In this document: piece by piece, positions 12,970-45,321 of the stretch
Numbering within the stretch: position 1 is the first letter of the stretch
How the letters are laid out: each line of letters opens with the position of its first letter
Assembly: GCA_963798845.1 (NCBI GenBank)
Contig: CAWCUS010000002.1
Location: 608,001-672,000 of the forward strand
DNA: 64,000 nt
Direction of reading: 5' to 3'
Source: an uncultured Gemmatimonadales bacterium
GTDB lineage: Bacteria; Gemmatimonadota; Gemmatimonadetes; Longimicrobiales; RSA9
The notes under the pieces: generated by a model
Seen by the model: only the letters and a program-made list of their open reading frames with translations
What the model was told of the DNA's origin: nothing
Database searches by the model: none
Made by a program: the position numbers and the translations under genes

Positions 12970-15318
12970 TCAACGCGAGAGGCGGGTGACGACTTCGTCC
13001 AGCGCTGACGCCACTCGCTCGGCATCGGCGGCGGTGAAGGGGAGGGGCGGCTTGATCTTGATGACGTTGGCGTCGGGGCCGTCGGTGCTGAGGAGGATCC
13101 CCCGGTCGCGCATGGCTTCGACCACGTCCGCGGCGAGGCGAGCGTCGGGCGTGCGCCGCTCGGGGTCGACCACGATCTCGACCCCGAGGAAGAGGCCACG
13201 GCCGCGCACGTCGCCGATGGCCGGGTGGTCGGCGGCCAGTCGGCGGAGGTCGGTGAGGAAGCGCTCGCCGACGTGGGCGGCGTGCTCCTGGAGCCCGTCG
13301 TCGTGAATGACGTCCAGGACGGCGAGCCCCACGGCGCAGCTCACGGGGTTTCCGCCGAACGTGTTGAAGTACTCCATGCCACGGTCGAAGGCCGCCGCGA
13401 TGGCCGCGGTGGTGACCACGGCGCCGAGCGGGTGCCCGTTTCCGATGGGCTTGCCGAGGGTGACGATGTCGGGGACGACGTCGTCGCCCTGGGTCTGGAA
13501 TCCCCAGAAGTGGCTTCCCACGCGTCCGAATCCGACCTGGACCTCGTCTGCCACACAGACGCCGCCGGCGGCGCGGACCGCGGCGTACGCGGCGGGGAGG
13601 AAGCCTGCCGGATACTCGATCTGACCGCCACAGCTGGCCAGCGATTCGGCGAAGAAGGCGGCGATCCCTCCGCTCGCCTCCGCGCGCTCGACCGCGGCAG
13701 CGACATCGGCGGCGTACGCGTCGCCGAGCCGGGGGTGTGGTGCGCGGTGGAGGCCGCGGTACGGGTCGGGCAGGGGGGCCACGTGGACCCACGGCGGTGC
13801 GCCCCCTCCGGCGGGGCCATCGAACTTGTAGGGACTCAGCTCGATGGCGGCGTTGGTGTTGCCGTGGTAGGCGGCGTCCAGGACCACTGCGTCGCGACGT
13901 CCGGTGAACGCGCGGGCGAGGCGGAGGGCGAGCTCGTTGGCCTCGCTGCCGGAATTCACGAAGAAGCAGACAGAGAGCGGGTCGGGCAGCGTCGCGGCGA
14001 GCTGCTCCGCGTAGCGCACGAGATTCTCGTGCAGGTAGCGGGTGTTGGTGTTGAGGACGGCGGCCTGGGTGGACAGTGCCTCGACGACGCGCGGATGCGA
14101 GTGGCCCACGTGGGCCACGTTGTTGACGCAGTCCAGGTATTCGGCGCCATCGGCGTCGTACAGGTGCTGCATCCATCCCCGCACAATGTGCAGAGGTCGG
14201 CGGTACGAGACGCTCAGCGACGGTCCGATGTGCCGCCGGCGTCGCTGGAGGATGTCCGGGGTGTCCGCGCTGTCCGCGCTCTCCATGATCCGCTCCGTCG
14301 CCAGCGCCGGGTGAATGACGTCCATGGCTTCGAGCAGCGACCAGGCGGCCGCTTCGCTCACCGAAAGATACGCGTCGTCGGGACGCTGCCCGTGCTGGAG
14401 CGCGGCGATGGTCACGGACATGGCCAGGCGCAGGCCCGCCAGCGCCCAGACCACCTCGAGCTCTGGCCGGGTCAGCGGGTTCGATGCCTGGTACCCGGCC
14501 ACCACGGCCGCCGCGGCCGCGACGGGGTCGGGCTGGCCCATCATGGCGTACGCGGCGCCAACCGCCGCCTCGGCCGGGAGCCAGGAGTACACCGCGTCGC
14601 CGAAGTCCAGCAGTCCGCTCACCCGGTCCGGCTCTGCTGACTCTTCGGGCCGATCGCTGGCCGTCACGAGCACGTTCCAGTCGTTCCCGTCTCCGTGGAG
14701 GAGGCCGATCCGGAGCCGCTCCAGCCTCGACGAAAGCGCTTCGCCCGCCGCCTCGACGCGGCGCAGCAGCAGGGCGCGACGGTCTGGCGGGAGGGCCGCG
14801 GCGTGCTCGGCGACCAGCGCCGGACCTCCGCGCACGTCCCAGTAGAAGTCGCGACGAAGGGCGGTGAGCTCGAGTCCGTCCAGGGCGCGATCCACCGTGC
14901 CGAGCAGCCGTCCCACTTCCCGCAGCAGCGACGGCGGGCGCCGGTCCAGCCGGGCCAGCGGGCGCCCGGGGATCCAGCGGACCACGCGGGCCAGGTGGCG
15001 GGCGTCGCCCGCTTCCAGCGTCTCGATCTCCAGCCCGGCGAGAGAAGGCACCACGAGCGGGAAGAGGAAGGGACGCGCTCGCTCCGCCAGCCGGTGGACC
15101 ATGGCGTTCTGGGCCTCGAGGAGCGCGCGGTCCTCGCCCAGGCGGGACACCTTCAGCACCCAGCGGGCGCCGTCCGGACGCGCCAGGACGAAGTTCCGGT
15201 CGCGCTCGCCGGGAAGCGTCGAGATCTCCCCCTCGAGCCCCCACAGCCGCCGGAGCGCGAGCGCCGCATCGGCGGGTCCGATCCGCGGGGTGCGCTCGCC
15301 CAGCGTCAGCGCGTCCAT
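12970..15318 (-). CDS. APH-like phosphotransferase fused to class-III PLP enzyme (hydroxylysine kinase / phospho-lyase type)
   Basis: N-terminal [20 protein letters not shown]-terminal [45 protein letters not shown]. Confidence 0.88.
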
Positions 15319-17132: not shown

Positions 17133-17334
17133 GACGAGCTCCTGTCTTCTTCGGGTCGCACGGCGGCAACGGCGCCGTCCCCGTGCCGTACGATGCCGGC
17201 GGCGCTGCGGTTTCGGCGTACCCGGCGGCTGCTCCCCGGGGTGAAGCGTCGGGCCCTGCGCCGGCTGCTCCTAGGACGGCGTATTGCCCGGGCCGTGGCC
17301 CCGCCGTTGCAAGAAGGCGCGGCAGGAGCAGAGG

Positions 17335-17961
17335 ATGGACGGTTTCTACACGGAGCGGGAAGAGGTCTTCCACAGCGCGACTCACGGTGCGGGCGCGCTG
17401 ATCGCGGCAGCCGGGGCGGGCTACCTGATCGGCCGGGCGGTGACCACGGGGGACCGGTGGCGCCTGGTGGCGTTCGCCATCTACGGTGTGACGCTGGTGC
17501 TCCTCTACACGGCCTCGACGCTCTACCACGCCGTGCGGTCGCGCGGCCTGAAGGAGACGCTGCGGGTGGTGGACCATTCGGCGATCTACCTGCTGATCGC
17601 CGGGACGTACACGCCCTTCCTTCTGCTGCGGCTGAGGGAGCCGTGGGGGTGGAGCGTGCTGGTGGGGATGTGGGCGCTGGCGCTGGGCGGCGTCGCCTAC
17701 AAGCTGAACTTCCTGGACCGCTACCCGCGGGTCTCCACGGCCATGTACCTGGGTATGTCGTGGCTCGGCCTGGCGATGGGGCTCCCGCTCGTCCAACGGC
17801 TGGGCGCGGTGACCCTCGCCTGGCTGCTCGCGGGCGGCCTGATCTACACGGCGGGCACGCTCCTCTACCACCTGGACCGGGTGCCGTACGCCCACGTGGT
17901 CTGGCACCTGTTCGTGCTGGGCGGGAGCGTGTGCCACTTCGTGGCCATCGCGCGGCTGTGA
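17335..17961 (+). CDS. Hemolysin III / PAQR family membrane protein (TrhA-like), copy 1
   Basis: EEVFHSATHG, STLYH, DHSAIYLLIAGTYTPF, HVVWHLFVLGGSVCH. Confidence 0.9.
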   Translation: MDGFYTEREEVFHSATHGAGALIAAAGAGYLIGRAVTTGDRWRLVAFAIYGVTLVLLYTASTLYHAVRSRGLKETLRVVDHSAIYLLIAGTYTPFLLLRLREPWGWSVLVGMWALALGGVAYKLNFLDRYPRVSTAMYLGMSWLGLAMGLPLVQRLGAVTLAWLLAGGLIYTAGTLLYHLDRVPYAHVVWHLFVLGGSVCHFVAIARL

Positions 17962-22099: not shown

Positions 22100-22783
22100 T
22101 CAGCGGCTGAGGGGCTCGCGGGCGCCGAGGACGCGGAGGTTGCGGGCGAAGCGGACCAGGAGCATCAGGAACATGATGCCGATGCCCGACGTGACGATCG
22201 GGTTGGCGAACGGCTTGATGGCCGTGGGGGAAAGGCCGTTGATCACGGCGAAGTAGAGCCCCGTGTTGACGATCGCCATGCCGATGCGCCCTTCGGTGGG
22301 GCCGAAGCGACCGTACGAGATGTTGAAGACCCCGTACACCGCCGACTCCAGGTACACGTTGATGGAGAGCATCAGGTAGACGATCACCAGCAGAAGCGAC
22401 ACCCAGAGGGAGATGAAGGGCGAGAGTCCCATCCCGCCCGCGATGAGGGCCGTGGTCACCGCGTCGACGGCGTGGTCGATGTAGTAGCCGTACTTCGGTC
22501 GCTCGCGATGCCGGAGGCGGGCGACGGTGCCATCGAGGCTGTCCCCGAACCAGTTCACCACCAGCATCCCGGTCGCCAGCCACAGCCACCCGGGGCTGAG
22601 CTCCGAGAGTGCGTAGCTCGCGGTGACGCCCACCGCGCCGATCACCCCGACGACCGTCAGCTGGTCCGAGGTCAGCCAGCTGGGGAGACGGCGAGCGATC
22701 GCCTGCAGCACGCGTCGCTCGGGACCGGCCAGCAGGAACGTCATCTCCCGCCGGGATTTCTCGCCGCCGCCCCCAGCGCTCAA
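22100..22783 (-). CDS. CDP-alcohol phosphatidyltransferase family protein
   Basis: DSLDGTVAR..R....G.Y.DH..D signature. TTG start 5 nt after GGAGG. Confidence 0.85.
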   Translation of the reverse strand: MSAGGGGEKSRREMTFLLAGPERRVLQAIARRLPSWLTSDQLTVVGVIGAVGVTASYALSELSPGWLWLATGMLVVNWFGDSLDGTVARLRHRERPKYGYYIDHAVDAVTTALIAGGMGLSPFISLWVSLLLVIVYLMLSINVYLESAVYGVFNISYGRFGPTEGRIGMAIVNTGLYFAVINGLSPTAIKPFANPIVTSGIGIMFLMLLVRFARNLRVLGAREPLSR

Positions 22784-22951
22784 ACACACCTCCACGATCG
22801 TCTCGGCTCCGCGTCCGGGGGAGCCTAGCCGCCGCCGCGTGTCTCCGCCAGTCCGCGCGAGCGCCGCCGGTGCCCCGGGGAACGTTGACAAATCACCGCC
22901 CTGGCGCTCTTCATCACGGTCCCGGTTCCCGGCAGCACGAAAGCAGCGCAC

Positions 22952-25069
22952 GTGAGAGCTCTCTCCCTCATTGTCGCCCTCGCCCCGGCCATCTCTTCCA
23001 GCCCCGCGCCGGCGGCATTCCCGATCCCGCCGTCGAGCCTCCAGGCCTCGCCATGGGCGACGACGGTCCCGGCCGACACCGGGGGCGTGGACACGGTCCG
23101 GTCGGACGCCGCCGCGGCGGACAGCTCCGCCGCTGCGTACCGCCTGGGGGAGATCGTGGCCAGCGTGGAGCGCCCGGTGTCGGAAGCCGCGGCAACGGTC
23201 CGGGTGATCACGGCGCGCGAGATCGAGGCGACCGGGGCGAGGACGCTGGACGAAGCGCTCCTGCTGGTGCCTGGGCTGGAGGTCCGCACCGGAGGCCAGG
23301 GAGTGCCGCGAGTCGACCTGCGGGGTCTCCGCTCGCGGCACGTGCTGCTTCTGCTGAACGGGATCCCGCTGAACTCGACGTACGACGGCCAGTTCGATCC
23401 GGCGTTCATCCCGACCGAGGAGATCGAGCGCATCAAGGTGACCACCGGCACGGGCTCGGTGCTGTACGGGGAGGGCGGCCTGGCGGGAACGATCAACGTC
23501 ATCACACGCTCAGGGGGGCGGCGCCTGTCGGGAGAAGCCTCGGCCGAAGCCCGTGAGGTGGATGGGGGGCTGGCCTCGGTACGCGCGGGGACGGGCACGG
23601 AGCACGTGTCGGTGTTCGCCTCGGGCAGCATCGCCTCCGTGAACGGCTTTCCCTCGCTGACCGGGTCTCCCGCGGCCGGCTCGCCAGGTGAGGAGGGGGT
23701 ACGGGGCAACAGTGACAGGAAGAGAGCGAACGGGATGGCGCTGGTGACGGCGTCGCCGGCCGCGGGAGTGCAGCTCGGGCTGGCCGCCGGGGTGAGCCGG
23801 GGCGAGTACGGGATCCCGCCGGAAGTGCAGGCCGATCCGGAAGACCGGTTCGCGCGCAGCCCGACGTACGACCGGGTGGAGGCGCGCGACGACGGCTACG
23901 CGCAGATGGCGGCCTCGCTGGGCTCGCCGGGCGGGCCGCGGCTCCGTTCCTGGGCTTACGTGAACGGCCTGGACCTGCACGAGGCGCGCTACGACGACTC
24001 CACGTACAGCTCCATGGAGGCGCGGGGCAGCTACGATTCCCACACGCGCACGCGGCTCACGGGCGTGGGCGTGCAGGCGGCGTCGAAGGCGGGTCGGCTG
24101 GGGCGGCTGACCCTCGGTCTGTCCGCGCAGCGCGACGCCTGGACGCTGCACCTGCGGGTGCGCAATGCGGCGGTCGGCTCCGGCCGCGACCGCACGTGGG
24201 AAATGCGCTCCTTCCACGACGATCGAACGCTCGCCCGCTACGGCACGGCGCTCGAGTACCAGGTCCGGCCCACGGACCGTCTCGGGATCGTGGCCGGCTA
24301 CATGCACCACTGGCTGCGGCGTGATGCCGCCGCCGACACCGCGCCGCGGGAGGAGGGGACCACCGGCGCGGACGGCTTGATGGCGGCGGTCAGCTTCGAC
24401 GCTTCCTCCAGCACGCGGCTGAGGGTGGCGGCGTCGCGCAAGTTCCGGTTCCCGACGATCCGGCAGCTGTACGACGAGGTGGCGGGGAACCCGACCCTGG
24501 GCACGGAGCGGTCCGACGTGGTGGAGGCGGGTGTGCACCAGCAGTTGCGTCGGGTGATGGTGGACGTGACAGTGTACAGGATGACGATCCACGACTTCAT
24601 CGAGCGCCCGTCGCGGAACGAGCCGTTCGCGAACTTCCAGCGCTACCGGTTCACCGGCGTCGAGCTGGCCGCCGAGGCGCGGCCAACGGACGCGCTCACG
24701 CTGCGGGGCGGGTACACGTTCATGGACGCCGTGGACGCGTCCGCAGGCGCGGGACGGCAGGAGCTCCAGTACCGGCCGCGTCACCACGCCACGCTGGAGA
24801 CGGGCTACGCCTTCCCGTTCGGCTTCGCCGCCACCGCCACCGCGAGCCGCGTCGCAGGTCAGTACTATTACTCCCGCCAGGAGCCGGTGGAGAAGGGGCA
24901 GCTCCCCGACTACACGATCGTGGGCCTCCGGCTCGTGCAGGACCTGTCCTGGCAGAACGCGGCGGTCTACGCCGGCGCGGACAACCTGTTCGACGTGGGG
25001 TACGAGGAGGAGTACGGCTCTCCCCGGGCGACCCGGACGCTCTACGTTGGAGCGCGCGTCCGATGGTGA
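22952..25069 (+). CDS. TonB-dependent receptor
   Basis: Signal peptide; plug motif IERIKVTTGTGSVLYGEGGLAGTINVIT; C-terminal DNLFD...RTLYVGARVRW. Confidence 0.9.
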   Translation: MRALSLIVALAPAISSSPAPAAFPIPPSSLQASPWATTVPADTGGVDTVRSDAAAADSSAAAYRLGEIVASVERPVSEAAATVRVITAREIEATGARTLDEALLLVPGLEVRTGGQGVPRVDLRGLRSRHVLLLLNGIPLNSTYDGQFDPAFIPTEEIERIKVTTGTGSVLYGEGGLAGTINVITRSGGRRLSGEASAEAREVDGGLASVRAGTGTEHVSVFASGSIASVNGFPSLTGSPAAGSPGEEGVRGNSDRKRANGMALVTASPAAGVQLGLAAGVSRGEYGIPPEVQADPEDRFARSPTYDRVEARDDGYAQMAASLGSPGGPRLRSWAYVNGLDLHEARYDDSTYSSMEARGSYDSHTRTRLTGVGVQAASKAGRLGRLTLGLSAQRDAWTLHLRVRNAAVGSGRDRTWEMRSFHDDRTLARYGTALEYQVRPTDRLGIVAGYMHHWLRRDAAADTAPREEGTTGADGLMAAVSFDASSSTRLRVAASRKFRFPTIRQLYDEVAGNPTLGTERSDVVEAGVHQQLRRVMVDVTVYRMTIHDFIERPSRNEPFANFQRYRFTGVELAAEARPTDALTLRGGYTFMDAVDASAGAGRQELQYRPRHHATLETGYAFPFGFAATATASRVAGQYYYSRQEPVEKGQLPDYTIVGLRLVQDLSWQNAAVYAGADNLFDVGYEEEYGSPRATRTLYVGARVRW

Positions 25070-25776
25070 CGGCCGGCCCGGGCATGCAGCGCTTCCTCAC
25101 GCTCGATGAGGTCCTGCTCGGGCAGTCCCGCGTCCCCACGCTGGCGGGGCGCCACCGCGTGCGGGCGGCGGAGCTCGCCACGCTGCTCGGTCTCGGGATC
25201 TGCGCCGCGGCGCTCACCACCTTCGTACACCTCGGGCTGCGCGTGCCCGGGCACCACATCGTTTTCGCAGTGTTCCCCGTGGCGCTCGGGCTCGCGCTCG
25301 TGCCGCGACGGGCGGCCGGGTCGGTCATGGGCGCGGGCGCGGCGGCGGGGGTCGTCGCCTTCGGCTTCATGGGCTTCCACCTTCCGGGTCCGGGGGCGCT
25401 GACCAGCTTGCTCCTCACCGGTCCGCTGCTGGACGTGGCGCTCCGCATCGGCCGACGCGGCGTTCGCCTGCACCTTGCCTTCCTCCTCGGCGGCGCGGCT
25501 GCCAACGCCATCGCCTTCGTCGTGCGCGGCGCCACCAGGGCCGCCGGGCTCCACGCAATGGCGGGCGCGCGGCCGTTCCCGGCCTGGTTCTCGCAGGCCG
25601 TCTGGACGTACGCTGCCGCCGGGCTCGTGGCGGGCGGCGTGAGCGCCCTCGCCTGGTTCCACATCGGCGTGCGGTGGAGAGGCGAGCGAGGTAGCGGGGC
25701 CGATGCCCCAGCCGGGACGGATGAGCCTGGAGCAGAAGACCCCGGGCGCGACCGACGCCCTCGCCGGAATCCGTGA
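25063..25776 (+). CDS. Multi-pass membrane protein, possibly ECF S-component-like
   Basis: About 6 hydrophobic segments and an LRVPGHH motif. Start overlaps the TBDR stop (alternative start 25084). Confidence 0.6.
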   Translation: MVTAGPGMQRFLTLDEVLLGQSRVPTLAGRHRVRAAELATLLGLGICAAALTTFVHLGLRVPGHHIVFAVFPVALGLALVPRRAAGSVMGAGAAAGVVAFGFMGFHLPGPGALTSLLLTGPLLDVALRIGRRGVRLHLAFLLGGAAANAIAFVVRGATRAAGLHAMAGARPFPAWFSQAVWTYAAAGLVAGGVSALAWFHIGVRWRGERGSGADAPAGTDEPGAEDPGRDRRPRRNP

Positions 25777-25791
25777 CGGGAGAGGATCTCG

Positions 25792-26745
25792 ATGGAGCTG
25801 CACGGCGTTCACCACCTGACCGCGATCACCGCCGATGTCCGGGAGAACCACCGCTTCTACACGCGCGTTCTCGGCCTGCGCCTGGTCAAGCGGAGCGTCA
25901 ACCAGGACGACGTCTCCGCGTACCACCTCTTCTACGCCGACGGCGAAGGGCGTCCGGGCACGGACATCACGTTTTTCGACTGGCCCGTCCCCCCCGAGCG
26001 ACGGGGCACGCGCAGCCTGGTGAGGACGCACATGCGGGTGGCCGACCGCACCTCGCTGGAATGGTGGCTCGAGCGCCTGGACGGGAGCGGAGTTGCGCAC
26101 GCCGGGATCGTGGAGCGTGACGGCCGCGCCACCATCGACTTCGAGGACCCCGAGGGGCAGCGGCTGTCGCTGATCGAGGACGGCGGCGAGGGCGATCCGC
26201 CGTCGTACTGGGACGGGTGCCCGGTGCCGCAGGAGCACCAGATCCGCGGCCTCGGGCCGATTGTCATGAGCGCCCCCACGCTGCAGCCCACGGACATCAT
26301 CCTCACCGAGGTTCTCGGCATGAACGCGGTCAGGGAGTATGACGACCCGGTTTACGGCCCTGGCGGGGTGCACGTCTTCCGCATGGCCGCCGACGGCCCG
26401 CAGGGGGAGCTGCACGTGGCGGTGCAGCCCGATCTCCAGCCCGCGCGCCAGGGCGCCGGCGGCGTCCACCACGTGGCGTTCCGCACTCCCGACGAGGACG
26501 AGTACGAGGCGTGGGTGGAGCGGCTCGGCGAGCTGGGCGTCCCGAACAGCGGCCCGGTGGACCGCTTCTGGTTCCGCAGCCTCTATTTCCGCGAGCCGAA
26601 CGGCGTCCTCTTCGAGATCGCCACCGACGGACCCGGCTTCGCCGTGGACGAGAACCCCGACACACTGGGCGAGAAGGTTGTCCTGCCCCCGTTCCTGGAG
26701 CCGCGGCGCGACGCGATCCTGGCGGGGCTCAAGCCGATTGAGTAG
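25792..26745 (+). CDS. Ring-cleaving dioxygenase, VOC/glyoxalase family (MhqO/MhqA-like)
   Basis: HHLTAI, VKRSVNQDD..YHLFY, GGVHHVAFR, DRFWFRSLYFREPNGVLFEIATDGPGF. Confidence 0.9.
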   Translation: MELHGVHHLTAITADVRENHRFYTRVLGLRLVKRSVNQDDVSAYHLFYADGEGRPGTDITFFDWPVPPERRGTRSLVRTHMRVADRTSLEWWLERLDGSGVAHAGIVERDGRATIDFEDPEGQRLSLIEDGGEGDPPSYWDGCPVPQEHQIRGLGPIVMSAPTLQPTDIILTEVLGMNAVREYDDPVYGPGGVHVFRMAADGPQGELHVAVQPDLQPARQGAGGVHHVAFRTPDEDEYEAWVERLGELGVPNSGPVDRFWFRSLYFREPNGVLFEIATDGPGFAVDENPDTLGEKVVLPPFLEPRRDAILAGLKPIE

Positions 26746-26764
26746 GGCCGCCAGCGCAGGTGAG

Positions 26765-27602
26765 ATGGGGCCGGCCGCCGGGCCCGACCTCCTCATCGGC
26801 CTGGACGACACCGACGTCGTGGGCTCGCCGGGGACCAACCAGCTCGCGCGCCGCATCGCCGACGCGCTTCCGCATGGGTTCATCGCCGACGTGGTGCTCC
26901 GGCATCAGCTGCTGAAGGACCCGCGGATCCCGTTCACGAGCCAGAACGGCAGCGCCTCGATCGGCGTCCGGGTGTCCGCGGAGATGGCCCGGGCGCTGCC
27001 CGTCGGCCCGTCCGCCGCGCTGCCGATGGCGGAGGCTGTCGACTCGCCCCTCCACGGCCTGCTGGCCTTCCTGCGTGCCGAGATCCTGGCGTTCGCGCCT
27101 CCGGGCAGTGATCCCGGGCTCGCCGTCGCGCACGCCCGCCTGTTTCCGCCGACGCGGACGCCACACTCCGCCGGCAGCGGGCCCGGCCAGCCGCGGTCGG
27201 ACGCTGGCGGCTTACGGCCGCCGCTGCCAGAGCGAGCCGATCACACAGGGAGCGGCGAGGGAGCTGGCCGGGAGCCACGGCATTCACCTCGAGGGGCTCG
27301 GTGGAACCGAGGACGGCATCATCGGCGCGCTCGCCGCCGTGGTCCTGCGGGCGGGCGGCGAAGATGGCCGCGTGGTCCACCGCCGGGGCTGGCCCTGGCC
27401 CGACCCCTTCACGGGCCTTCGCACGGTCGAGGAGGTGCACGCCCGCGGCGTGGATGAGGTGAGGGTGCTCGCCACGGGAGCGCCCGTGCACCAGGGGCTC
27501 GTCGATGTCGGGAAGCGGCTCCGCCCGGCTTTCCGCGGGGGTCGGGTCGTCCTGTTCGTCGAGTCCGGTGAGGCGGCGTGGCGCGGGCTCAAAGTGCCGT
27601 GA
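26765..27602 (+). pseudogene. TiaS-N-terminal-like (GxDDTD) protein split by a frameshift near 27135-27200
   Basis: Frame 2 gives IGLDDTD..GT..RHQL..IPFTSQN..SDPGLAV. Frame 3 continues AYGRRCQ..LEGLGGTEDGIIGALAAV..DGR to TGA at 27602. May be an assembly error. Confidence 0.6.
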
Positions 27603-27656
27603 CTGGCGGCGCGGGGCGTCGTATGTTGCCGGGTCGCTCGCAGAAACGACCGTGAG

Positions 27657-28379
27657 GTGGCCGTGGCCGTAACGAATTCCGATCGCTTTCTGGTCTCGTT
27701 CGCGCAGGCGGAGGACGCGCTCAAGCGGATGCTGGGGACGTCGTCGAAGGACTCGTTCCGCTGGACGGTCAGGCAGGCGGCGAAGCGGAGCGCAGTGGTG
27801 CGCTCCGTGGAGGAGGACCTCCTCGAGTTCGCGGATCTCCGGAACGCAATCGTGCACGACCGCGGCGGCGGGTACGTGATCGCGGAGCCGCACGTCGCGA
27901 CGGTGGAGCGGCTGGAGGTGATCGTCGCGCTGCTCACCGATCCGCCGCGCATCGACGGCACCATGTCGCATCCCGTGGTCACCTGCTCGGCGGAGGACCC
28001 GATCGGGGAGGCGGCCCAGCGCATGGTGAAGGGCGGATTCACGCGGCTTCCCGTCTACTCCGGCGACGAGCTGGTCGGCCTCCTCACCGCGCACGCCATC
28101 GCCCGCTGGATCGCCACGAAGCTGGCCGGGCCGCTCGACACGCTTCACGAGGAGCCGGTCCGCGCCGTGCTCGAGTACGGGAACGGCGTGAAGCGGTTCG
28201 AGCTGGTGTCGCGGGATCGACTGGTGGCGGACGTGGTCCGGCTGTTCACCGGGGCCACCGAGCGCGGGCGCCGGCTGGAAGCGGTCCTCGTCACGGCGAA
28301 CGGGCTGCCGACGGAGCGGCTGTTGGGGATCGTGACGGTCCAGGACCTCCCCCGCCTCTACGGTGTCATCGCCCCCTGA
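27657..28379 (+). CDS. N-terminal HEPN-like (RxxxxH) domain + CBS pair protein
   Basis: Helical N-terminus with LRNAIVH; CBS motifs FTRLPVY..LVGLLT and VLVT..G...LLGIVTVQDL. Confidence 0.78.
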   Translation: MAVAVTNSDRFLVSFAQAEDALKRMLGTSSKDSFRWTVRQAAKRSAVVRSVEEDLLEFADLRNAIVHDRGGGYVIAEPHVATVERLEVIVALLTDPPRIDGTMSHPVVTCSAEDPIGEAAQRMVKGGFTRLPVYSGDELVGLLTAHAIARWIATKLAGPLDTLHEEPVRAVLEYGNGVKRFELVSRDRLVADVVRLFTGATERGRRLEAVLVTANGLPTERLLGIVTVQDLPRLYGVIAP

Positions 28380-28391
28380 CCGTTCCGGGCG

Positions 28392-28985
28392 CTAGCCGTT
28401 GTAGATGAGCCCGCCCCGGCTGGCGTAGAGCTGGAGCACGGCGCGCGCTTCGTCGCGCAGGACGCCAGGCACCATCTCGATCCCGCGCTCCTCCACGTAC
28501 CGGATCGATTCCGGGAAGACCGGCCCTTCGTCGAACTGAAGGCGCAGGGCGTCCTCGCGCCCGGCGCCCCACGCCAGGCGGCGGACCCCGCTCCACAGCA
28601 CCGCGCCGAGGCACATGGCGCACGGAGCGCACGACGACACCAGCTCGTGGGCAGGCAGGCCCTCCGCCGCCAGCGTGAACGTGCCCAGGCGCTGCTGGGC
28701 GAACATGAGCGCGGTCATCTCGGCGTGAAGCGCCGAGTTCCTGAGCCGCTCCACGCTGTTCAGCCCCACGCTCACGAGCCTGCCGCTGTCCCGCTCGAAA
28801 ACGGCGGCGGCGAACGGACCGCCCGCCCGGCGGAGCACGTTCTCGCGCGACAGCTCGATCACCAGCCGCATGCGATCTTCGAGCGATGCGAGCACCGCGT
28901 TCGCCGGCACCACCTCCAGGACCCACCCGGGGAGCGACACCTCCACCCCCCGGGTGGGGATGCGTCCTTCGCCTGCTTCTGCCAT
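28392..28985 (-). CDS. Zn-dependent nucleoside/nucleobase deaminase (CDA/TadA/guanine deaminase-like)
   Basis: GGPFAAAV, HAE and PCAMC motifs. Confidence 0.88.
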   Translation of the reverse strand: MAEAGEGRIPTRGVEVSLPGWVLEVVPANAVLASLEDRMRLVIELSRENVLRRAGGPFAAAVFERDSGRLVSVGLNSVERLRNSALHAEMTALMFAQQRLGTFTLAAEGLPAHELVSSCAPCAMCLGAVLWSGVRRLAWGAGREDALRLQFDEGPVFPESIRYVEERGIEMVPGVLRDEARAVLQLYASRGGLIYNG

Positions 28986-29054
28986 GGCACCTTTCTTCGA
29001 AGCGGGACCTGCCATCGGGCGGCCCCGTTCCGTACGCCCCGGCGCGCTCCGCGG

Positions 29055-32489: not shown

Positions 32490-32793
32490 TGTCCCGTTCT
32501 CCTCCGAGCGGTGGGTCTGCAGCGCGGCCGGCCCGCTCGGAAAGCCGGCGGCGTGCGCACGGCCGCCGGCCGTACGTCCTTCCTCCAAGGCACCGTATGC
32601 CCCCGCGGCCGGGAGGCCAACCCCGGGCGTCGGCTTCCCCCGGAGGCTTGGGCGCCGGCCGCGACGGGACCGTCTCGCCGCACTCTGCTCGAGATGCCGG
32701 GACGCCGCCGGGGACCGCCCTCTCCCGGGAGGCGACGGGGTGCTACTATTCCGGGTCGGGAAACGCGTGTGCGATCGTCACGGGAGGCGGGGC

Positions 32794-33432
32794 ATGACCG
32801 AGGGTGTGCGGGGAGCTGAGGGCGAGGAGATGGCGAACGCCTGGACGCACGGCGTGGGCGTGGCGGCGAGCGTGGCAGGCGGCGCGCTGCTCATCGTCTT
32901 CGCCGCGCTCCACGGGGACGCGTGGCAGGTGGTGGGCGTTTCGGTCTTCGCGGCGACGCTGCTCGCCCTCTACACCGCGTCGACGCTGTACCACACCTCC
33001 CGCTCGCCGCTCCGTAAGGAGCGCCTCAAGGTGCTCGACCACGCGGCCATCTACCTGCTCATCGCCGGGACGTACACGCCGTTCACCCTCATCGCGCTGC
33101 GGGGCGGCTGGGGCTGGAGCCTGTTCGGCGTGATCTGGGGGCTGGCCGTGGCCGGCGTGGGCATGAAGCTGGTGTACACCGGCCGCTTCAGGCTCCTGTC
33201 CACGGCGGTCTACGTGGGCATGGGCTGGCTCGTGCTCATCGCCATCGGGCCGCTGACGCGCAGCCTCGGGCCGGTCACCCTGGCGTGGCTGGTGGCGGGC
33301 GGCGTGGCGTACACGGCCGGGACCCCCTTCTACCATAGCCGCCGCGTGCCGTACGCCCACGCCGTCTGGCACCTGTTCGTCCTGGCCGGGAGCGTGTGCC
33401 ATGCCGTGGCGGTGGCCACGCTGATCGGCTGA
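32794..33432 (+). CDS. Hemolysin III / PAQR family membrane protein, copy 2
   Basis: EEMANAWTHG, STLYH, DHAAIYLLIAGTYTPF, HAVWHLFVLAGSVCH. Confidence 0.9.
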   Translation: MTEGVRGAEGEEMANAWTHGVGVAASVAGGALLIVFAALHGDAWQVVGVSVFAATLLALYTASTLYHTSRSPLRKERLKVLDHAAIYLLIAGTYTPFTLIALRGGWGWSLFGVIWGLAVAGVGMKLVYTGRFRLLSTAVYVGMGWLVLIAIGPLTRSLGPVTLAWLVAGGVAYTAGTPFYHSRRVPYAHAVWHLFVLAGSVCHAVAVATLIG

Positions 33433-40983: not shown

Positions 40984-42126
40984 CTAGTTCTCGTTCGTTC
41001 CGTTCTCGTGCAGCCCCTCGAGGAGGGCGCCCCCGAGAGCCTCGACCTGCCACCTGCGAATAGTGTCGACCCGCGCCAGGGCATTGAGCGACGTCGGCCT
41101 CTCCCGCGCCAGCGACTCCAGCTGGGATCGGGGCATGAGGAAGCCGCGCTCCAGCCCCAGCCGCTCCGCTTCCCGATCACGCACGTCCTTCAGCCGGTCC
41201 ACCTGCCGGTCGAACTCGGGATCCCGCGCCGGGCGACGCGGCGGCCGCGGCCGCTCGGGCAGATCTCCCTCCGGCATGGCGCGGGCGCGGTCCACGGCGG
41301 TCATCATGGCCTCGCCGTAGCGCCGCGCGTTGGACGTCGACAGCCGCGGCACGTTCGCCAGCTCCTTGCCGGTCCGCGGCATCTCGCGAGCCACGTCCAC
41401 CAGCGCCTCGTTGTTCAGGACGCGGAACGAAGCCACGTCCCGCTCCTCCGCCACCGCCTCGCGCCACCGGTACAGCTCGCGAAGCACGGCGAGGCCGCGA
41501 CGATCGAGATCGCGGGTGCCCTTCAGACGCAGGAACGTCGTGCCGGCATCGTCGGGCGGCTCCCAGCGGGTCTTCTCCGTGATGCCGAACTCCTCTTCCG
41601 CCCACTCGAGGCGGCGCATCTCGATGAGCCTCGCCCGCAGCGCGTCCCGCAGCTGCGGGAGGTAGCGCGTGTCCATGGCGGCGTACTCCAGCATCTCGTC
41701 CGGGAGCGGCCGCCGCGCCCAGTCCGCGCGCTGGTACTTCTTCTCCAGCGCGACCCCGAGCTCGTCCTCGAGCAGCTTGGCCAGCCCGAATGAGCGCTCG
41801 CCCAGGAAGCGGGCGGCGATCTTCGTGTCGAACAGCCCGGCGACGTGGATGCCGAAATCGCGGTCGAGGAGGCGCAGGTCGTAGTCGGCGTCGTGAAAGA
41901 CGATCTCCACGCCCGGGTCCTCGAAGACGTCGGCCAGCGGGTTGAGCGAGCCGAGCGCCACGGTGTCCACCAGCCACGTCTCGTCGCGGGTGGAGAGCTG
42001 GACCAGACACAGCGTGTCCAGATAGCGGTGGTAGCCCGCCGCCTCCGTGTCCGCAGCCACGAGCGTCTCGCCCGACAGGCGTTTCGCCAGTGCTTCGAGC
42101 TCGCGTATGGTTCCGATCAGCCGCAT
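40984..42126 (-). CDS. rnd: Ribonuclease D
   Basis: DEDD motifs DTE, HDADYD, FDTKIAA, DWARRPL..YAAMD; HRDC domains. Confidence 0.9.
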   Translation of the reverse strand: MRLIGTIRELEALAKRLSGETLVAADTEAAGYHRYLDTLCLVQLSTRDETWLVDTVALGSLNPLADVFEDPGVEIVFHDADYDLRLLDRDFGIHVAGLFDTKIAARFLGERSFGLAKLLEDELGVALEKKYQRADWARRPLPDEMLEYAAMDTRYLPQLRDALRARLIEMRRLEWAEEEFGITEKTRWEPPDDAGTTFLRLKGTRDLDRRGLAVLRELYRWREAVAEERDVASFRVLNNEALVDVAREMPRTGKELANVPRLSTSNARRYGEAMMTAVDRARAMPEGDLPERPRPPRRPARDPEFDRQVDRLKDVRDREAERLGLERGFLMPRSQLESLARERPTSLNALARVDTIRRWQVEALGGALLEGLHENGTNEN

Positions 42127-42295
42127 CCGGAGGTCGCGGTGCAAGGAATCTGCCGGTTTGCGCGCGTCCGACGGCGCTGGTACCATTGCGCCCGAGATCG
42201 CGCCGCTCCCGCGCAGGGTCGCGACAAGGTACGGTCTGACGCCCCGGTTTTCCACCGCGCCCGACCGCTGGCTCCCGGAACGCTCGCTCACGGCG

Positions 42296-43891
42296 ATGGC
42301 CACCGATTCCCAGCCGATGCTCCTGATCACGGTCGACCGCGTGCACGCCCGGCCGGGCGCCCGCGCCCCTTCCGCCGACGCGGTTCTCGTGCGCGCAGAC
42401 CGGGTGGTGGCGATCGGCGCCGCCGCCGATCTCGAGCCTCTGGCCGGCGGCGCCCGGCGCCTCGATCTCCCCGGCCTCACCCTCACGCCCGGGCTGACCG
42501 ACGCCCACGTCCACCTGGTGGAATGGGCGCTCTCCCGACTCGCCGTCGATCTGACGACCACGGATTCTGCCGAGGCGGCCGCGCATCGCGTGGCGGAGCA
42601 CGCCGGGCGCGGCTCGGGGAGCGGCTGGGTGGTGGGGCGGGGGTGGGACCCGCACCGCTGGGGCGCGTCGCCCCACCGGCGGCACCTGGACGAGGCGCTG
42701 CCCGGAAGGCCGGTCCTGCTGCACAGCCACGACATGCACTCCGCCTGGGCCAGCACCGTCGCGCTGCGCGCTGCCGGGGTCACCCGCGACACGCCCGAGC
42801 CGGCCGGGGGCCGGATCGAGCGGGACCCGGACGGTGAGCCGACGGGCGTGCTCCGGGACAACGCCGTTCCCCTCCTCACCGGCGCCGCCCCGGCGCCTGC
42901 GGCGGAAGAGCGCCGGGCCGCGCTGCTGGAGGGGCAGCGCGCGCTGCACCGCGTCGGCGTGAGCGGGGTGCACACGGTGGAGCCCGAGTCGCTCGGGCTG
43001 CTGGAGGATCTTCGCGCCGCGGACCAGCTCCGCCTGCGCGTGCTCCAGCACCTGCCGCTCGCGAAGCTGGACGATGCCATCCGGCTCGGGCTCCGCAGCG
43101 GCTTCGGCGGTCCCTGGCTGCGCATCGGCGGCGTGAAGATGTTCCTCGACGGGGCGCTCGGCTCCCGTACGGCCTGGATGCGCGAGCCGTACGAGGGAAC
43201 GACCGCTGACCGCGGCATGTCCACGCTCCCGCCGGACGAGTTCCGCGATGCGGTCCGCCGGGGCTCCGCCGCAGGGCTCGCCACGACCGTGCACGCCATC
43301 GGAGACGCGGCCACGGACCTGGCACTCGACGTCCTCCACGCCGACGGCGCCGCGCTCACCGGGCGAGTGCCGCACCGGATCGAGCACGCGCAACTCGTGC
43401 GGCGAGACCGCCTGGGCCCGTCGCCGCACCCGGCGCTGCGCAGCGTGGTTTGCTCCGTCCAGCCATCGCACCTCATGACCGACTGGCGCGCCGCCGACCG
43501 CCACTGGGGCCCCCGGGCAGGCGACGCGTACCCGTTCCGCTCGCTCGAGGTCGCGGGCGCCACGCTGGCCTTCGGCTCGGATGCCCCCGTCGAGCCGCCC
43601 GATCCCCGCCAGGGGCTGTACGCCGCCGTCTCTCGCCGCGACCTTGCCGGTGAGCCGGGCGGTGGGTGGTTCGCGGAGGAGCGCCTGTCGCCTGTCCGGG
43701 CGCTGGCGGGCTACACCACCGGCGCGGCCCGTGCGGCGGGAGATGCGCGGCAGGGGCGGCTCGACCCGGGGACGTTCGCCGACCTCGTCGCCTGGGATCG
43801 GGATCCCCTTTCGGTGGAGCCCGAGGCGCTCCTGGAGATGCGCGCCGTGGTCACGGTGGTCGGCGGCGAGGTGGTGTGGAGCGACGGATGA
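42296..43891 (+). CDS. Amidohydrolase 3 family (YtcJ-like)
   Basis: PGLTDAHVH, KMFLDGALGSRTA, HAIGD, HRIEHAQ, FGSDAPV. Confidence 0.88.
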   Translation: MATDSQPMLLITVDRVHARPGARAPSADAVLVRADRVVAIGAAADLEPLAGGARRLDLPGLTLTPGLTDAHVHLVEWALSRLAVDLTTTDSAEAAAHRVAEHAGRGSGSGWVVGRGWDPHRWGASPHRRHLDEALPGRPVLLHSHDMHSAWASTVALRAAGVTRDTPEPAGGRIERDPDGEPTGVLRDNAVPLLTGAAPAPAAEERRAALLEGQRALHRVGVSGVHTVEPESLGLLEDLRAADQLRLRVLQHLPLAKLDDAIRLGLRSGFGGPWLRIGGVKMFLDGALGSRTAWMREPYEGTTADRGMSTLPPDEFRDAVRRGSAAGLATTVHAIGDAATDLALDVLHADGAALTGRVPHRIEHAQLVRRDRLGPSPHPALRSVVCSVQPSHLMTDWRAADRHWGPRAGDAYPFRSLEVAGATLAFGSDAPVEPPDPRQGLYAAVSRRDLAGEPGGGWFAEERLSPVRALAGYTTGAARAAGDARQGRLDPGTFADLVAWDRDPLSVEPEALLEMRAVVTVVGGEVVWSDG

Positions 43892-45321
43892 CCGACGCAC
43901 TGAGGACGAAGGTCGTGGCGACGGTGGGACCGGCTACGGCGTCGCGGGAGAAGATCGAGGCGATTTGCCGGGCCGGGGCCAACGTGATCCGGATCAACAT
44001 GGCCCACGGCGAACACGACGAGCACCGGCAGGTGATCGGGTGGGTGCGCGAGGTCGCGACGGTGCTGGACGTTCCCATCGCCGTGCTCGCCGACCTGGCG
44101 GGCCCGAAGATCCGCGTGGGCGCGATGCGCGCCGCGGTCAACCTGACGGAGGGGGATACCGTCGTGCTCGCGCCGGAGGACGAGGCCACGGGCGACGAGA
44201 TCCCCACCACCTATCCACGTCTGGCGGACGACCTTTCGCCGAAGCACCGGATCCTCCTCGACGACGGCAAGCTGGAGCTGTCGGTGGTGGCCAGCGAGCC
44301 GCCGCGTGTGCGCGCGACCGTCCTGCGAGGCGGGCTGCTGCTGCCGAAGAAGGGGATCAATCTCCCGGGGGTGCGGGTCAGCACCCCCGCGCTCACGGCC
44401 AAGGACCGCACCGACCTGGCCATGGCCGTGGAGGAGGGTGTGGACTTCATCGGCCTCTCCTTCGTCCAGCGGCCCGGCGACCTGGACGAGCTCCGTTCGC
44501 TGATACCGGACGACATCCTGGTGGTGGCCAAGATCGAGAAGGATGTGGCGCTGGAGCATCTCGACGAGATCCTCGAGCGATCCGACGCCGTCATGGTGGC
44601 CCGCGGTGACCTGGGCGTCGAGCTCCCCTTCGAGCAGGTGCCGGTGGCGCAGAAGCGGATCATCCAGTCCGCCAACCTGCACGCGCGCCCCGTGATCACG
44701 GCCACGCAGATGCTCGAGTCCATGATCGAGAACGAGCGTCCCACGCGCGCCGAAGCCAGCGACGTGGCGAACGCGCTGTTCGACGGGACTGACGCGGTGA
44801 TGCTGTCCGGCGAGACGGCCATGGGGAAGCACCCCGTCCTGGCCGTGGAGGCCATGGTCCGGATCGGCCGCGCCATCGAGCAGACGCCGGCGTTCGCGAA
44901 CGGACCCAAGTACGATGTCCCCGTGGTCAACCGGCTCCGCTCGGGCGCCACGCGCACCGAGCACGCCATTGCAGCAGCCACCGTCGAGGCCGTGCGCCTC
45001 CTGCGCGCGCCGCTCATCATCACGCTCACGCGCAGCGGCTTCACCTCTCGCCTGGTCTCGAGCTATCGGCCGCCGGTGCCCGTGGTCGGAGTGTGCAACA
45101 ACTTGAAGGTGTATCGGCAGCTGGGGCTGGTCTGGGGCGTGCGACCCGTCCTCTGTCGCATCGATGGCGAGCCTAGCTACGAAGAGATCTTCGCCTGCGC
45201 CCGCCAGAGCATCCTCGACATGGGGCTCGCCCGGTCCGGCGACCGCGTCCCCGTCACCGCCGGCGTGCCGTTCTTCATGACCGTGGGCTCCACCAACCTG
45301 CTCCGCATCGAATCGCTGTGA
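43888..45321 (+). CDS. pyk: Pyruvate kinase
   Basis: TKVVATVGPA, AKIE, MVARGDLGVE, TATQMLESM, DAVMLSGETA. Confidence 0.96.
   Translation: MTDALRTKVVATVGPATASREKIEAICRAGANVIRINMAHGEHDEHRQVIGWVREVATVLDVPIAVLADLAGPKIRVGAMRAAVNLTEGDTVVLAPEDEATGDEIPTTYPRLADDLSPKHRILLDDGKLELSVVASEPPRVRATVLRGGLLLPKKGINLPGVRVSTPALTAKDRTDLAMAVEEGVDFIGLSFVQRPGDLDELRSLIPDDILVVAKIEKDVALEHLDEILERSDAVMVARGDLGVELPFEQVPVAQKRIIQSANLHARPVITATQMLESMIENERPTRAEASDVANALFDGTDAVMLSGETAMGKHPVLAVEAMVRIGRAIEQTPAFANGPKYDVPVVNRLRSGATRTEHAIAAATVEAVRLLRAPLIITLTRSGFTSRLVSSYRPPVPVVGVCNNLKVYRQLGLVWGVRPVLCRIDGEPSYEEIFACARQSILDMGLARSGDRVPVTAGVPFFMTVGSTNLLRIESL

Follow-up and report, generated by a model that had tools for sequence, protein, structure and literature searches.

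A conserved pair of a solitary S-component-fold membrane protein and a TiaS-like protein in a candidate envelope-uptake module of Gemmatimonadota, Acidobacteriota and Planctomycetota

A 64,000-nucleotide stretch of DNA from an uncultured Gemmatimonadales bacterium (contig CAWCUS010000002.1; referred to as the window) contains five co-oriented genes, g1 to g5, that encode a TonB-dependent outer-membrane receptor (TBDR), a membrane protein (G2), a protein of the VOC superfamily, a relative of the archaeal tRNA enzyme TiaS (G4) and a CBS-domain protein. This gene set raises the question of which of its members belong together and what they might do. A first-pass annotation of the sequence had proposed one uptake-and-modify operon of the five genes, in which a small molecule, such as a cofactor or modified nucleoside, is imported and then activated by G4; read as a five-gene pathway, the compound would also be cleaved or isomerised by the VOC protein and regulated by a HEPN-CBS protein. 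The analysis described here identified a smaller conserved unit, namely the G2 protein of about 200 residues and the G4 protein of about 240 residues, which form the invariant core of a candidate envelope-uptake module. With a probability of roughly 45%, this core is an importer of the solitary S-component type that is fed by a TBDR, and its TiaS-like partner in the cytoplasm would use ATP to phosphorylate or otherwise activate the cargo.

A pattern scan over one genome per species yielded 415 loci with a G4 relative, and the best 80 of these 415 loci, comprising 24 from Gemmatimonadota, 15 from Acidobacteriota and 41 from Planctomycetota, were compared by tblastn with the proteins of the window. 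G4 was detected in all 80 loci, and in 77 of them, distributed over the three phyla, G2 was located directly 5' of G4 on the same strand. The three loci without G2 (L003, L037 and L040) have no upstream DNA, as G4 begins there less than 150 nt from the start of the locus. The stop codon of G2 and the start codon of G4, taken as the nearest in-frame start upstream of the GxDDTD motif, share a 4-nt overlap in 50 of the 77 loci. Of 201 evenly sampled genomes of the phylum, four encoded G4 and the same four encoded G2 in an adjoining position, with neither gene in the other 197; among 41 close relatives, G4 was present in three. A TBDR gene was found in 30 of the 80 loci, 23 times directly 5' on the same strand, once downstream and six times on the opposite strand, where five of the six matches reached just 22-25% identity. 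TBDR, G2 and G4 occur together in other genomes as well, among them the genome G003, which belongs to the same family as the window and to another genus. The G4 family comprises 1,199 cluster representatives at E<=0.001; the relatives of g4 have a length of about 235-265 residues, and full-length matches range from 228 to 316 residues. A weak search for fused (Rosetta-stone) forms of G4 among the longer proteins revealed none, and the longer matches P0167 and P0168 look like frameshift chimeras. A complex prediction with the G2 protein of the same-genus genome G001 and its G4 protein, P0002, gave a score of 0.00 and hence no verdict either way.

What recurred in these comparisons was a part of the five-gene unit of the first-pass annotation: the G2-G4 core with its TBDR stood, whereas the VOC and CBS genes were no conserved partners and accompany the module in the window's genus only. 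By tblastn, a VOC gene was detected in one of the 80 loci (L010), 7 kb off and on the opposite strand, and the CBS protein, the CDP-OH transferase and the deaminase were detected in none. The VOC gene lies between G2 and G4 in the window's own genome (G000) and in G001 only; the order in G001 is that of the window, with CDP-OH transferase, TBDR-G2-VOC-G4-CBS and deaminase following one another. In G003, TBDR, G2 and G4 are contiguous and the VOC gene is absent. A homologue of g5 occurs in three of the 41 relatives, one of which (G019; 43% identity) is a genome without G4. Because of the counts over the 80 loci, the gene order of G003 and the g5 homologue of G019, the VOC gene is an insertion confined to the window's genus, where it separates G2 and G4 that are elsewhere coupled in translation, and g5 is an unrelated neighbour; both are local passengers.

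Sequence identity between G000 and G001 (L085) differs across the region, with 70% for the TBDR, 72% for G2 and 60-70% for G4 as compared with 85% for the VOC protein, 87% for the CBS protein, 83% for the CDP-OH transferase and 84% for the deaminase. The conserved module has thus diverged faster than the inserted and flanking genes, and the VOC and CBS genes (85-87%) are under a different evolutionary regime from the module genes (60-72%). A single pathway of all five products would account for the co-orientation, for gaps of at most 54 nt without a terminator-like site between the genes and for the gene order kept in G001; set against the locus counts, the arrangement in G003, the g5 homologue of G019 and this difference in identity, it is improbable. 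In the window's genus, the VOC and CBS genes are possibly co-transcribed with the module.

The two genes themselves were classified by family searches. The product of g3 belongs to the VOC superfamily, which is characterised by paired beta-alpha-beta-beta-beta modules, according to Pfam PF00903 (Glyoxalase; 78.1 bits, two stretches), and no specific NCBIfam equivalog was reached. The CBS domain of g5 was recognised by PF00571 (58.8 bits, best stretch residues 103-153), and its residues 1-100 gave no Pfam match at E<=1. The HEPN label attached to this protein found no support beyond an Rx4H motif (LRNAIVH), as no family or feature search backs it; the ESM Atlas likewise returned nothing useful and no named look-alike for the N-terminus. 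A role of g5, G4, G2 and the VOC protein in a defence system was considered and rejected, since none of them had a PADLOC match.

The relationship of G4 to TiaS was evident from motifs, profiles and predicted structure. The GxDDTD motif noted at first is present in g4 as LIGLDDTD. A profile of the G4 family searched against PDB sequences matched TiaS residues 3-152 (E 4e-9) and the P. furiosus fragment 3U02 (E 3.6e-12), and the motifs GxDDTD, P-x-PY..NG, (D/N)PG and GxIGALAAVG are common to both proteins. The structural model of G4, computed for P0002 of G001 with a 23-row alignment, had a pLDDT of 89 and superimposed on TiaS with Z 19.0-19.3 and a root mean square deviation of 2.0-2.3 Å over 147-152 residues at 23-24% identity, followed by the next fold at Z 6.2; Foldseek returned TiaS for the same model at E 1e-8. 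The Pfam family PF22641 (TiaS_TCKD; cut-off 27) was reached by two of five G4 homologues tested (28.0 and 27.9 bits) and matched neither half of the window's g4. The N-terminal 150-180 residues or so of G4 are homologous to the kinase domain TCKD of TiaS, the archaeal tRNA(Ile2) 2-agmatinylcytidine synthetase (PDB 3AMT, 3AMU, 5XOB, 4RVZ and the fragment 3U02), whereas the alignments end at about TiaS residue 152, leaving the OB and zinc-ribbon parts unmatched. About 240 residues offer no room for them, in agreement with the first-pass annotation, and G4 has a C-terminal domain of its own, which is beta-rich, spans about 80 residues and contains the invariant motifs DGRVVH, GWxWPD and RPxxR. 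A second, short resemblance was found to methanogenesis marker protein 11 (TIGR03280), in which G4 residues 129-177 correspond to model positions 235-282 (E 6e-8, 32 bits); this match covers about 50 residues only and lies far below the cut-off of 255.8 bits. Lack of co-occurrence elsewhere and lack of a TiaS-like fold had been named at the outset as the results that would speak against a common function; neither was observed for the TBDR-G2-G4 core, because the genes were found together in other genomes and the G4 model is TiaS-like.

As for the chemistry of this fold, TiaS reportedly first splits ATP to AMP and pyrophosphate and phosphorylates C34 at its C2 oxygen, with Thr18 said to be the autophosphorylation site, both according to work by Terasaka et al. 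and Osawa et al. in 2011. The invariant threonine of the G4 motif PGTNQ aligns with the CTT stretch of TiaS. A dual specificity of the TiaS kinase domain for RNA and protein is described in PMC11938285.

The homology and the fold match to the TiaS catalytic domain would also be explained if G4 were a bacterial tRNA-modifying enzyme that acts like TiaS on a tRNA cytidine and were linked to a membrane protein gene incidentally. The unmatched OB and zinc-ribbon parts, a score of 17.1 bits with the NCBIfam TiaS model NF040849 against a cut-off of 600 bits, and a TilS gene in the window's own genome (TIGR02432; 164.5 bits, cut-off 93.6) argue otherwise, as does a patchy bacterial distribution in just 4 of 201 genomes of the phylum with universal linkage to G2. 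G4 is not a TiaS, as it lacks both the tRNA-binding parts and the role of TiaS as the sole AUA-decoding cytidine modifier of an archaeal organism, in place of TilS. One Gemmatimonadales locus (L004:11265-13856, minus strand) carries an array of about 19 tRNA genes that starts about 0.5 kb 3' of G4, which would suit a tRNA enzyme, and in L022 an rRNA operon and three tRNAs are located about 5.5 kb 3' of G4; the proximity of tRNA genes to a TiaS-fold gene in these two loci is probably a coincidence. Taken together, a function of G4 in tRNA modification is highly improbable.

The copy of g4 in the window is not one intact gene. The interval 26765-27602, annotated at first as a single gene, comprises 838 nt and is not a multiple of three, and a frameshift had been missed. 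Residues 1 to about 124 (MGPAAGPDLLIGLDDTD...) are encoded in the 26765 frame, which continues as arginine-rich nonsense without a stop as far as 27457, and the last 135 codons or so (...LAAYGRRCQSEPITQ...WRGLKVP and the stop codon) lie in the +1 frame that ends at 27602. The family profile matched g4 with positions 2-97 at 26789-27136 and with positions 100-239 at 27198-27599 in a different frame, which places the break between 27137 and 27197; the G+C content at third codon positions (GC3) switches phase at about 27190-27210, and homologues cover about 50% of the first-frame translation. The break is situated in a linker whose length and sequence already differ between the window and the same-genus orthologue. 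This orthologue, P0002 of G001, is an intact protein of 264 residues, to which the C-terminal part of g4 is 70% identical. The window's own genome (4.26 Mb, six contigs) contains no further G4 copy according to the family profile. The +1 break may stem from an inactivation of recent date or from an indel in the assembly. Public reads did not span it: run X1 contained 18% of the words, and its two contigs cover 26700-26864 and 26958-27108, outside 27137-27197. A programmed frameshift was rejected, as all relatives examined have a single frame and the break falls into the variable linker. Elsewhere in the window, two long overlapping open reading frames at 41177-43933 on the minus strand show a GC3 phase change near 42260-42320; the downstream frame encodes RNase D domains (3'-5' exonuclease and HRDC; residues 481-756 of an 858-residue frame) and the upstream frame is without a nearby stop. 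The phase change could reflect either another disrupted frame or a fusion; in the former case, assembly indels would become the more likely origin of the break in g4.

The G2 protein of the window belongs to no Pfam or NCBIfam family. Within the G2 family, two of 56 members touched PF12822, at E 0.04 only, and nothing was found among PDB sequences at E<=10, BtuM (8OVV) included. An AlphaFold model of the window sequence, based on a 56-row alignment, showed six long helices (pLDDT 88). When this model was compared with 48,161 chains, the top 15 matches were all S-components from transporters of the energy-coupling factor (ECF) type or their kin (Z 10.9-6.0, 149-168 residues aligned), including 5EDL, RibU, ThiT, BioY, FolT, PanT, BtuM, NikM and CbiM, and unrelated folds followed at Z 6.0 or below. 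Foldseek placed the same proteins at the head of its list, where the S-component 5edl and RibU reached a probability of 0.99 at E 0.12. The structure comparison bore out the suggestion that g2 encodes an S-component-like protein. Since the tool warns of generic helical arrangements below a Z of about 13, the argument relies on the uniformity of the list and on full-length coverage and not on the Z value alone. For G2, the ESM Atlas returned the family of the protein itself (0.96; automatic name 'Thia_YuaJ') as well as a PF09819 cluster (0.88), which are regarded as leads only. With respect to topology, the model and the positive-inside rule predict that both termini face the cytoplasm and that the first periplasmic loop carries the invariant PG(H/S) motif. 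In helix 1, G38 is invariant in 56 of 56 sequences and position 42 is occupied by A (43), S (6), T (3), G (2) or V (2), yielding a GxxxA pattern. This G38xxxA42 is a small-xxx-small motif that resembles the AxxxA motif by which helix 1 of S-components docks onto EcfT, according to PMC11109136; the likeness refers to the helix only and not to a superposition.

Neither EcfT nor an ABC ATPase is encoded within the G2-G4 locus. The window's own genome contains one CbiQ/EcfT match, which is part of a CbiM-CbiQ-ABC cluster, and EcfT (PF02361) was not found in four of five other carrier genomes (92-99% complete) and was found in the fifth. Because EcfT is missing in four of these five genomes and the own EcfT resides in the CbiM-CbiQ-ABC cluster, G2 is, as far as its predicted fold can be trusted, a solitary S-component-type protein.

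The genes around the G2-G4 pair encode envelope proteins in all three phyla. Neighbouring open reading frames were clustered and scanned for families, and the resulting cluster maps were used qualitatively only, as the GC3-based gene caller misassigned some frames. The g1 product is a TBDR, as annotated at first, with the plug and the 22-strand barrel domain of such receptors and with 90.5 bits for PF07715 (Plug) and 100.8 bits for PF00593 (TonB_dep_Rec_b-barrel). Its best NCBIfam models are receptors for B12 and siderophores, all far under their equivalog cut-offs, for instance TIGR01779 (TonB-B12) with 130.1 versus 599.7 bits and NF007926 with 97.9 versus 836 bits. BtuB-like TBDRs occur in the loci from Gemmatimonadota and Vicinamibacteria, whereas other Acidobacteriota have divergent TBDRs of about 790-860 residues or a 1,149-residue receptor composed of CarboxypepD_reg and OMP_b-brl_4, which replaces the upstream TBDR in three Acidobacteriota loci. 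The Planctomycetota loci encode pilin-like proteins of the DUF1559 / N-methyl type (24 loci) and a DNRLRE / PEP-CTERM protein (11 loci). A gene for a ModE-type helix-turn-helix (HTH) protein lies within 6 kb of the pair in 24 of the 80 loci, mostly of Planctomycetota, and scores 64.6 bits with TIGR00637, below the cut-off of 98.5. Five Planctomycetota loci (L024, L028, L038, L056 and L070) share a longer recurrent gene order, in which genes for the ModE-type HTH protein, the DUF1559 pilin-like protein and the DNRLRE-PEP-CTERM protein precede G2 and G4, followed by Transglut_core2, metallopeptidase-like, HAD hydrolase and 6-phosphogluconate dehydrogenase genes. In the Planctomycetaceae locus L024, a match to the Acido-Lenti-1 small RNA (42.5 bits, gathering score 37) was observed just 3' of G4 at 5386-5431 on the minus strand.

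The closest known system to TBDR-G2-G4 is BtuB-BtuM for vitamin B12, in which, according to PMC6072759, the solitary S-component BtuM is encoded together with btuB in organisms that lack an ECF module. Both systems have a TBDR gene adjoining the gene of an S-component-fold membrane protein of about 22 kDa in genomes without an ECF module, and BtuM matched the G2 model with Z 7.7. In contrast to BtuM, G2 has no detectable sequence relation to it, no cobalamin riboswitch and an occurrence in other phyla; above all, G4 is an obligatory second gene for which the BtuM system has no counterpart.

For the G2-G4 pair, a sequence of three steps can be proposed. The TBDR would carry a small molecule, probably a cofactor-like micronutrient, over the outer membrane in Gemmatimonadota and many Acidobacteriota; G2 would bind this cargo at the periplasmic side and move it over the inner membrane without an ECF module; and G4 would spend ATP to phosphorylate or otherwise activate the cargo, which would then be trapped in the cell and committed to use. 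The gene pairing, the folds, the homology and the absence of EcfT from most carrier genomes are observed; import by G2, an ATP-dependent reaction of G4 on the cargo and the cofactor-like nature of this cargo are what we infer from a kinase domain that lost its tRNA-binding parts, occurs in lock-step with a solitary S-component and is encoded near outer-membrane receptors, because under these circumstances G4 most simply acts on what G2 imports. A facilitator and a kinase that perform such metabolic trapping as a pair are exemplified by PnuC-NadR, where a small non-energised carrier is likewise encoded together with an ATP-dependent cytoplasmic enzyme that phosphorylates the cargo; the protein families of PnuC-NadR are unrelated to G2 and G4, and for the latter trapping is a supposition.

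Several points weigh against an importer with a cargo-activating partner. The assignment of G2 as an S-component relies on a predicted fold without a sequence family, and its best Z of 10.9 falls below the warning level mentioned above. No riboswitch, the cobalamin type included, was detected in the window or in any of 15 related loci, and the TBDR, far under every NCBIfam equivalog cut-off, likewise gives no clue to the substrate. Known substrates of TiaS are RNA and TiaS itself, according to PMC11938285, and a small-molecule kinase activity of G4 is purely conjectural. With G4 frame-shifted in the window, the module may be non-functional in this genome. Finally, strict pairing and translational coupling are no less compatible with a stable complex, in which G4 is an energiser or a sensor kinase, than with a soluble trapping enzyme.

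The first form of such a complex is one in which G4 is an energy-coupling or gating partner, that is, a TCKD-fold ATPase on the cytoplasmic face of G2 that drives or licenses transport in place of EcfT and EcfA. To our knowledge, no TCKD protein is known as a transport ATPase. The identical phyletic pattern (4 of 201 genomes for both genes, neither alone), the adjacency in 77 of 80 loci with stop/start overlaps in 50 of 77 and the missing EcfT in four of five other carriers are what this explanation predicts; furthermore, G38xxxA42 is conserved in the very helix that contains the AxxxA docking motif of S-components, and the mode of transport by solitary S-components is stated to be unclear in PMC11109136. 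The weak search for a fused G2-G4 or any other fused form found none, and in one genus the VOC gene separates G2 from G4 with G4 still kept in G001, neither of which favours a tight complex. On balance, a direct coupling role of G4 is unlikely. ECF transporters, which consist of an S-component, EcfT and EcfA/A', share with G2-G4 the S-component fold and an ATP-using cytoplasmic partner, and helix 1 of G2 has the conserved small-xxx-small motif; the G2-G4 locus lacks EcfT and the ABC ATPase and the partner has a TCKD kinase fold. Carried one step further, G2-G4 would constitute an unrecognised class of primary-active micronutrient importers, in which a TiaS-type kinase fold and not an ABC-type ECF module couples ATP cleavage to translocation, possibly via a phospho-threonine or a phosphorylated cargo intermediate, and which would be fed by TBDRs in Gemmatimonadota and Acidobacteriota and by pilin-like DUF1559 systems in Planctomycetota. 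This wider proposal is rather unlikely and is offered as speculation.

Alternatively, G2-G4 might be a signalling device with G2 as a ligand-sensing membrane receptor, since the S-component fold is common to transporters and receptors such as the 5TMR sensors of histidine kinases (PMC11109136). 5TMR sensor histidine kinases also combine an S-component-fold membrane domain with a kinase; in G2-G4, the two are separate polypeptides, the kinase is of the TCKD type and the small-xxx-small motif of helix 1 is retained. A signalling function would agree with the protein-kinase activity of the TiaS kinase domain (PMC11938285), with the invariant threonine of PGTNQ opposite the CTT stretch and with the ModE-type HTH genes near 24 of the 80 loci, mostly of Planctomycetota. 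On the other side, neither an output nor a DNA-binding domain is recognisable in G4, a regulator beside the pair is lacking in most Gemmatimonadota loci, the structural matches of G2 are transporter S-components, and the conserved motif of helix 1 is said in PMC11109136 to be absent from receptors. We consider a sensory function distinctly unlikely, and an importer with a cargo-activating partner is preferred.

The features of the locus are compiled in Table 1. The window has a base composition of about 71% G+C, which explains its crowded lists of open reading frames; despite this, the five plus-strand frames picked at first are the ones with coding-type GC3. Their co-orientation and spacing were found as annotated: g1 and g2 overlap by 7 nt (25063-25069), and the gaps that follow measure 15 nt (25777-25791), 19 nt (26746-26764) and 54 nt (27603-27656). 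Because the G001 orthologue begins at the equivalent methionine, ATG 25084 may be the true start of G2 instead of 25063, in which case the overlap between g1 and g2 turns into a 14-nt gap. The TTGACA reported upstream of g1 is present and is the one copy on both strands of the 64-kb window, whereas shuffled sequences lead to an expectation of 7.1 +/- 2.4. This hexamer and a GCTCTTCAT block, separated from it by a 15-nt gap, are kept in G001, in which the rest of the spacer has diverged, so that the conserved elements can reasonably be regarded as a candidate promoter footprint. A scan of 22600-28700 found neither a full sigma-70 promoter nor an intrinsic terminator.

Table 1. Genes and sequence elements of the G2-G4 locus in the window
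Feature	Position	Strand	Basis
g1: TonB-dependent outer-membrane receptor, 705 aa	22952-25069	+	Pfam Plug and barrel
g2 (G2): six-helix inner-membrane protein, predicted S-component fold	25063-25776, likely start ATG 25084	+	model, adjacency
g3: two-domain VOC protein (glyoxalase/dioxygenase superfamily), 317 aa	25792-26745	+	Pfam Glyoxalase
g4 (G4), N-terminal part: TiaS TCKD-like, GLDDTD motif	26765-27197	+	frame of 26765
g4 (G4), C-terminal part: end of TCKD and beta-rich C-terminal domain of about 80 aa	27198-27602	+	+1 frame
g5: CBS-domain protein, N-terminal region of about 95 aa with LRNAIVH (Rx4H)	27657-28379	+	Pfam CBS
Upstream boundary: divergent CDP-alcohol phosphatidyltransferase gene	22100-22747	-	Pfam CDP-OH_P_transf
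Downstream boundary: convergent cytidine/deoxycytidylate-type deaminase gene	28392-29015	-	Pfam dCMP_cyt_deam_1
TTGACA, candidate -35 element, 62 nt 5' of the TBDR start	22885-22890	+	sequence scan

Two further observations concern the flanks of the locus. Two genes for HlyIII-family (haemolysin-III-related / PAQR) membrane proteins, located 15 kb apart on the plus strand at 17284-17958 and 32740-33429, flank the region. At 13225-15300, the GC-phase analysis indicated one long minus-strand gene, and the plus-strand frame 13225-14637, which has no Pfam match, is probably spurious.

Regarding previous knowledge, no description of the G2-G4 pair was found in the TiaS/agmatidine or S-component literature, supplements excepted, and the literature search for bacterial TiaS-like proteins or homologues returned nothing relevant; in the survey of the S-component fold, no mention of TiaS, TonB or these three phyla was encountered. 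How solitary S-components move vitamins without an ECF motor is acknowledged as an open question in PMC11109136. The G2-G4 pair provides a concrete, testable case for this question, as a solitary S-component-fold family always occurs with one specific ATP-using partner, and TBDR-G2-G4 would be a case of uptake by a solitary S-component that may well involve a new principle of energy coupling or trapping. In addition, a bacterial branch of the TiaS kinase fold, a fold which the literature searched describes only from the archaeal tRNA enzyme, receives its first functional context. Relatives of G4 occur in 415 species-level genomes from three phyla that are dominant in the environment and poorly cultured. 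Once the cargo is identified, a further route of uptake, and perhaps a new chemistry of cofactor salvage, would be added to the biology of Gemmatimonadota, Acidobacteriota and Planctomycetota.

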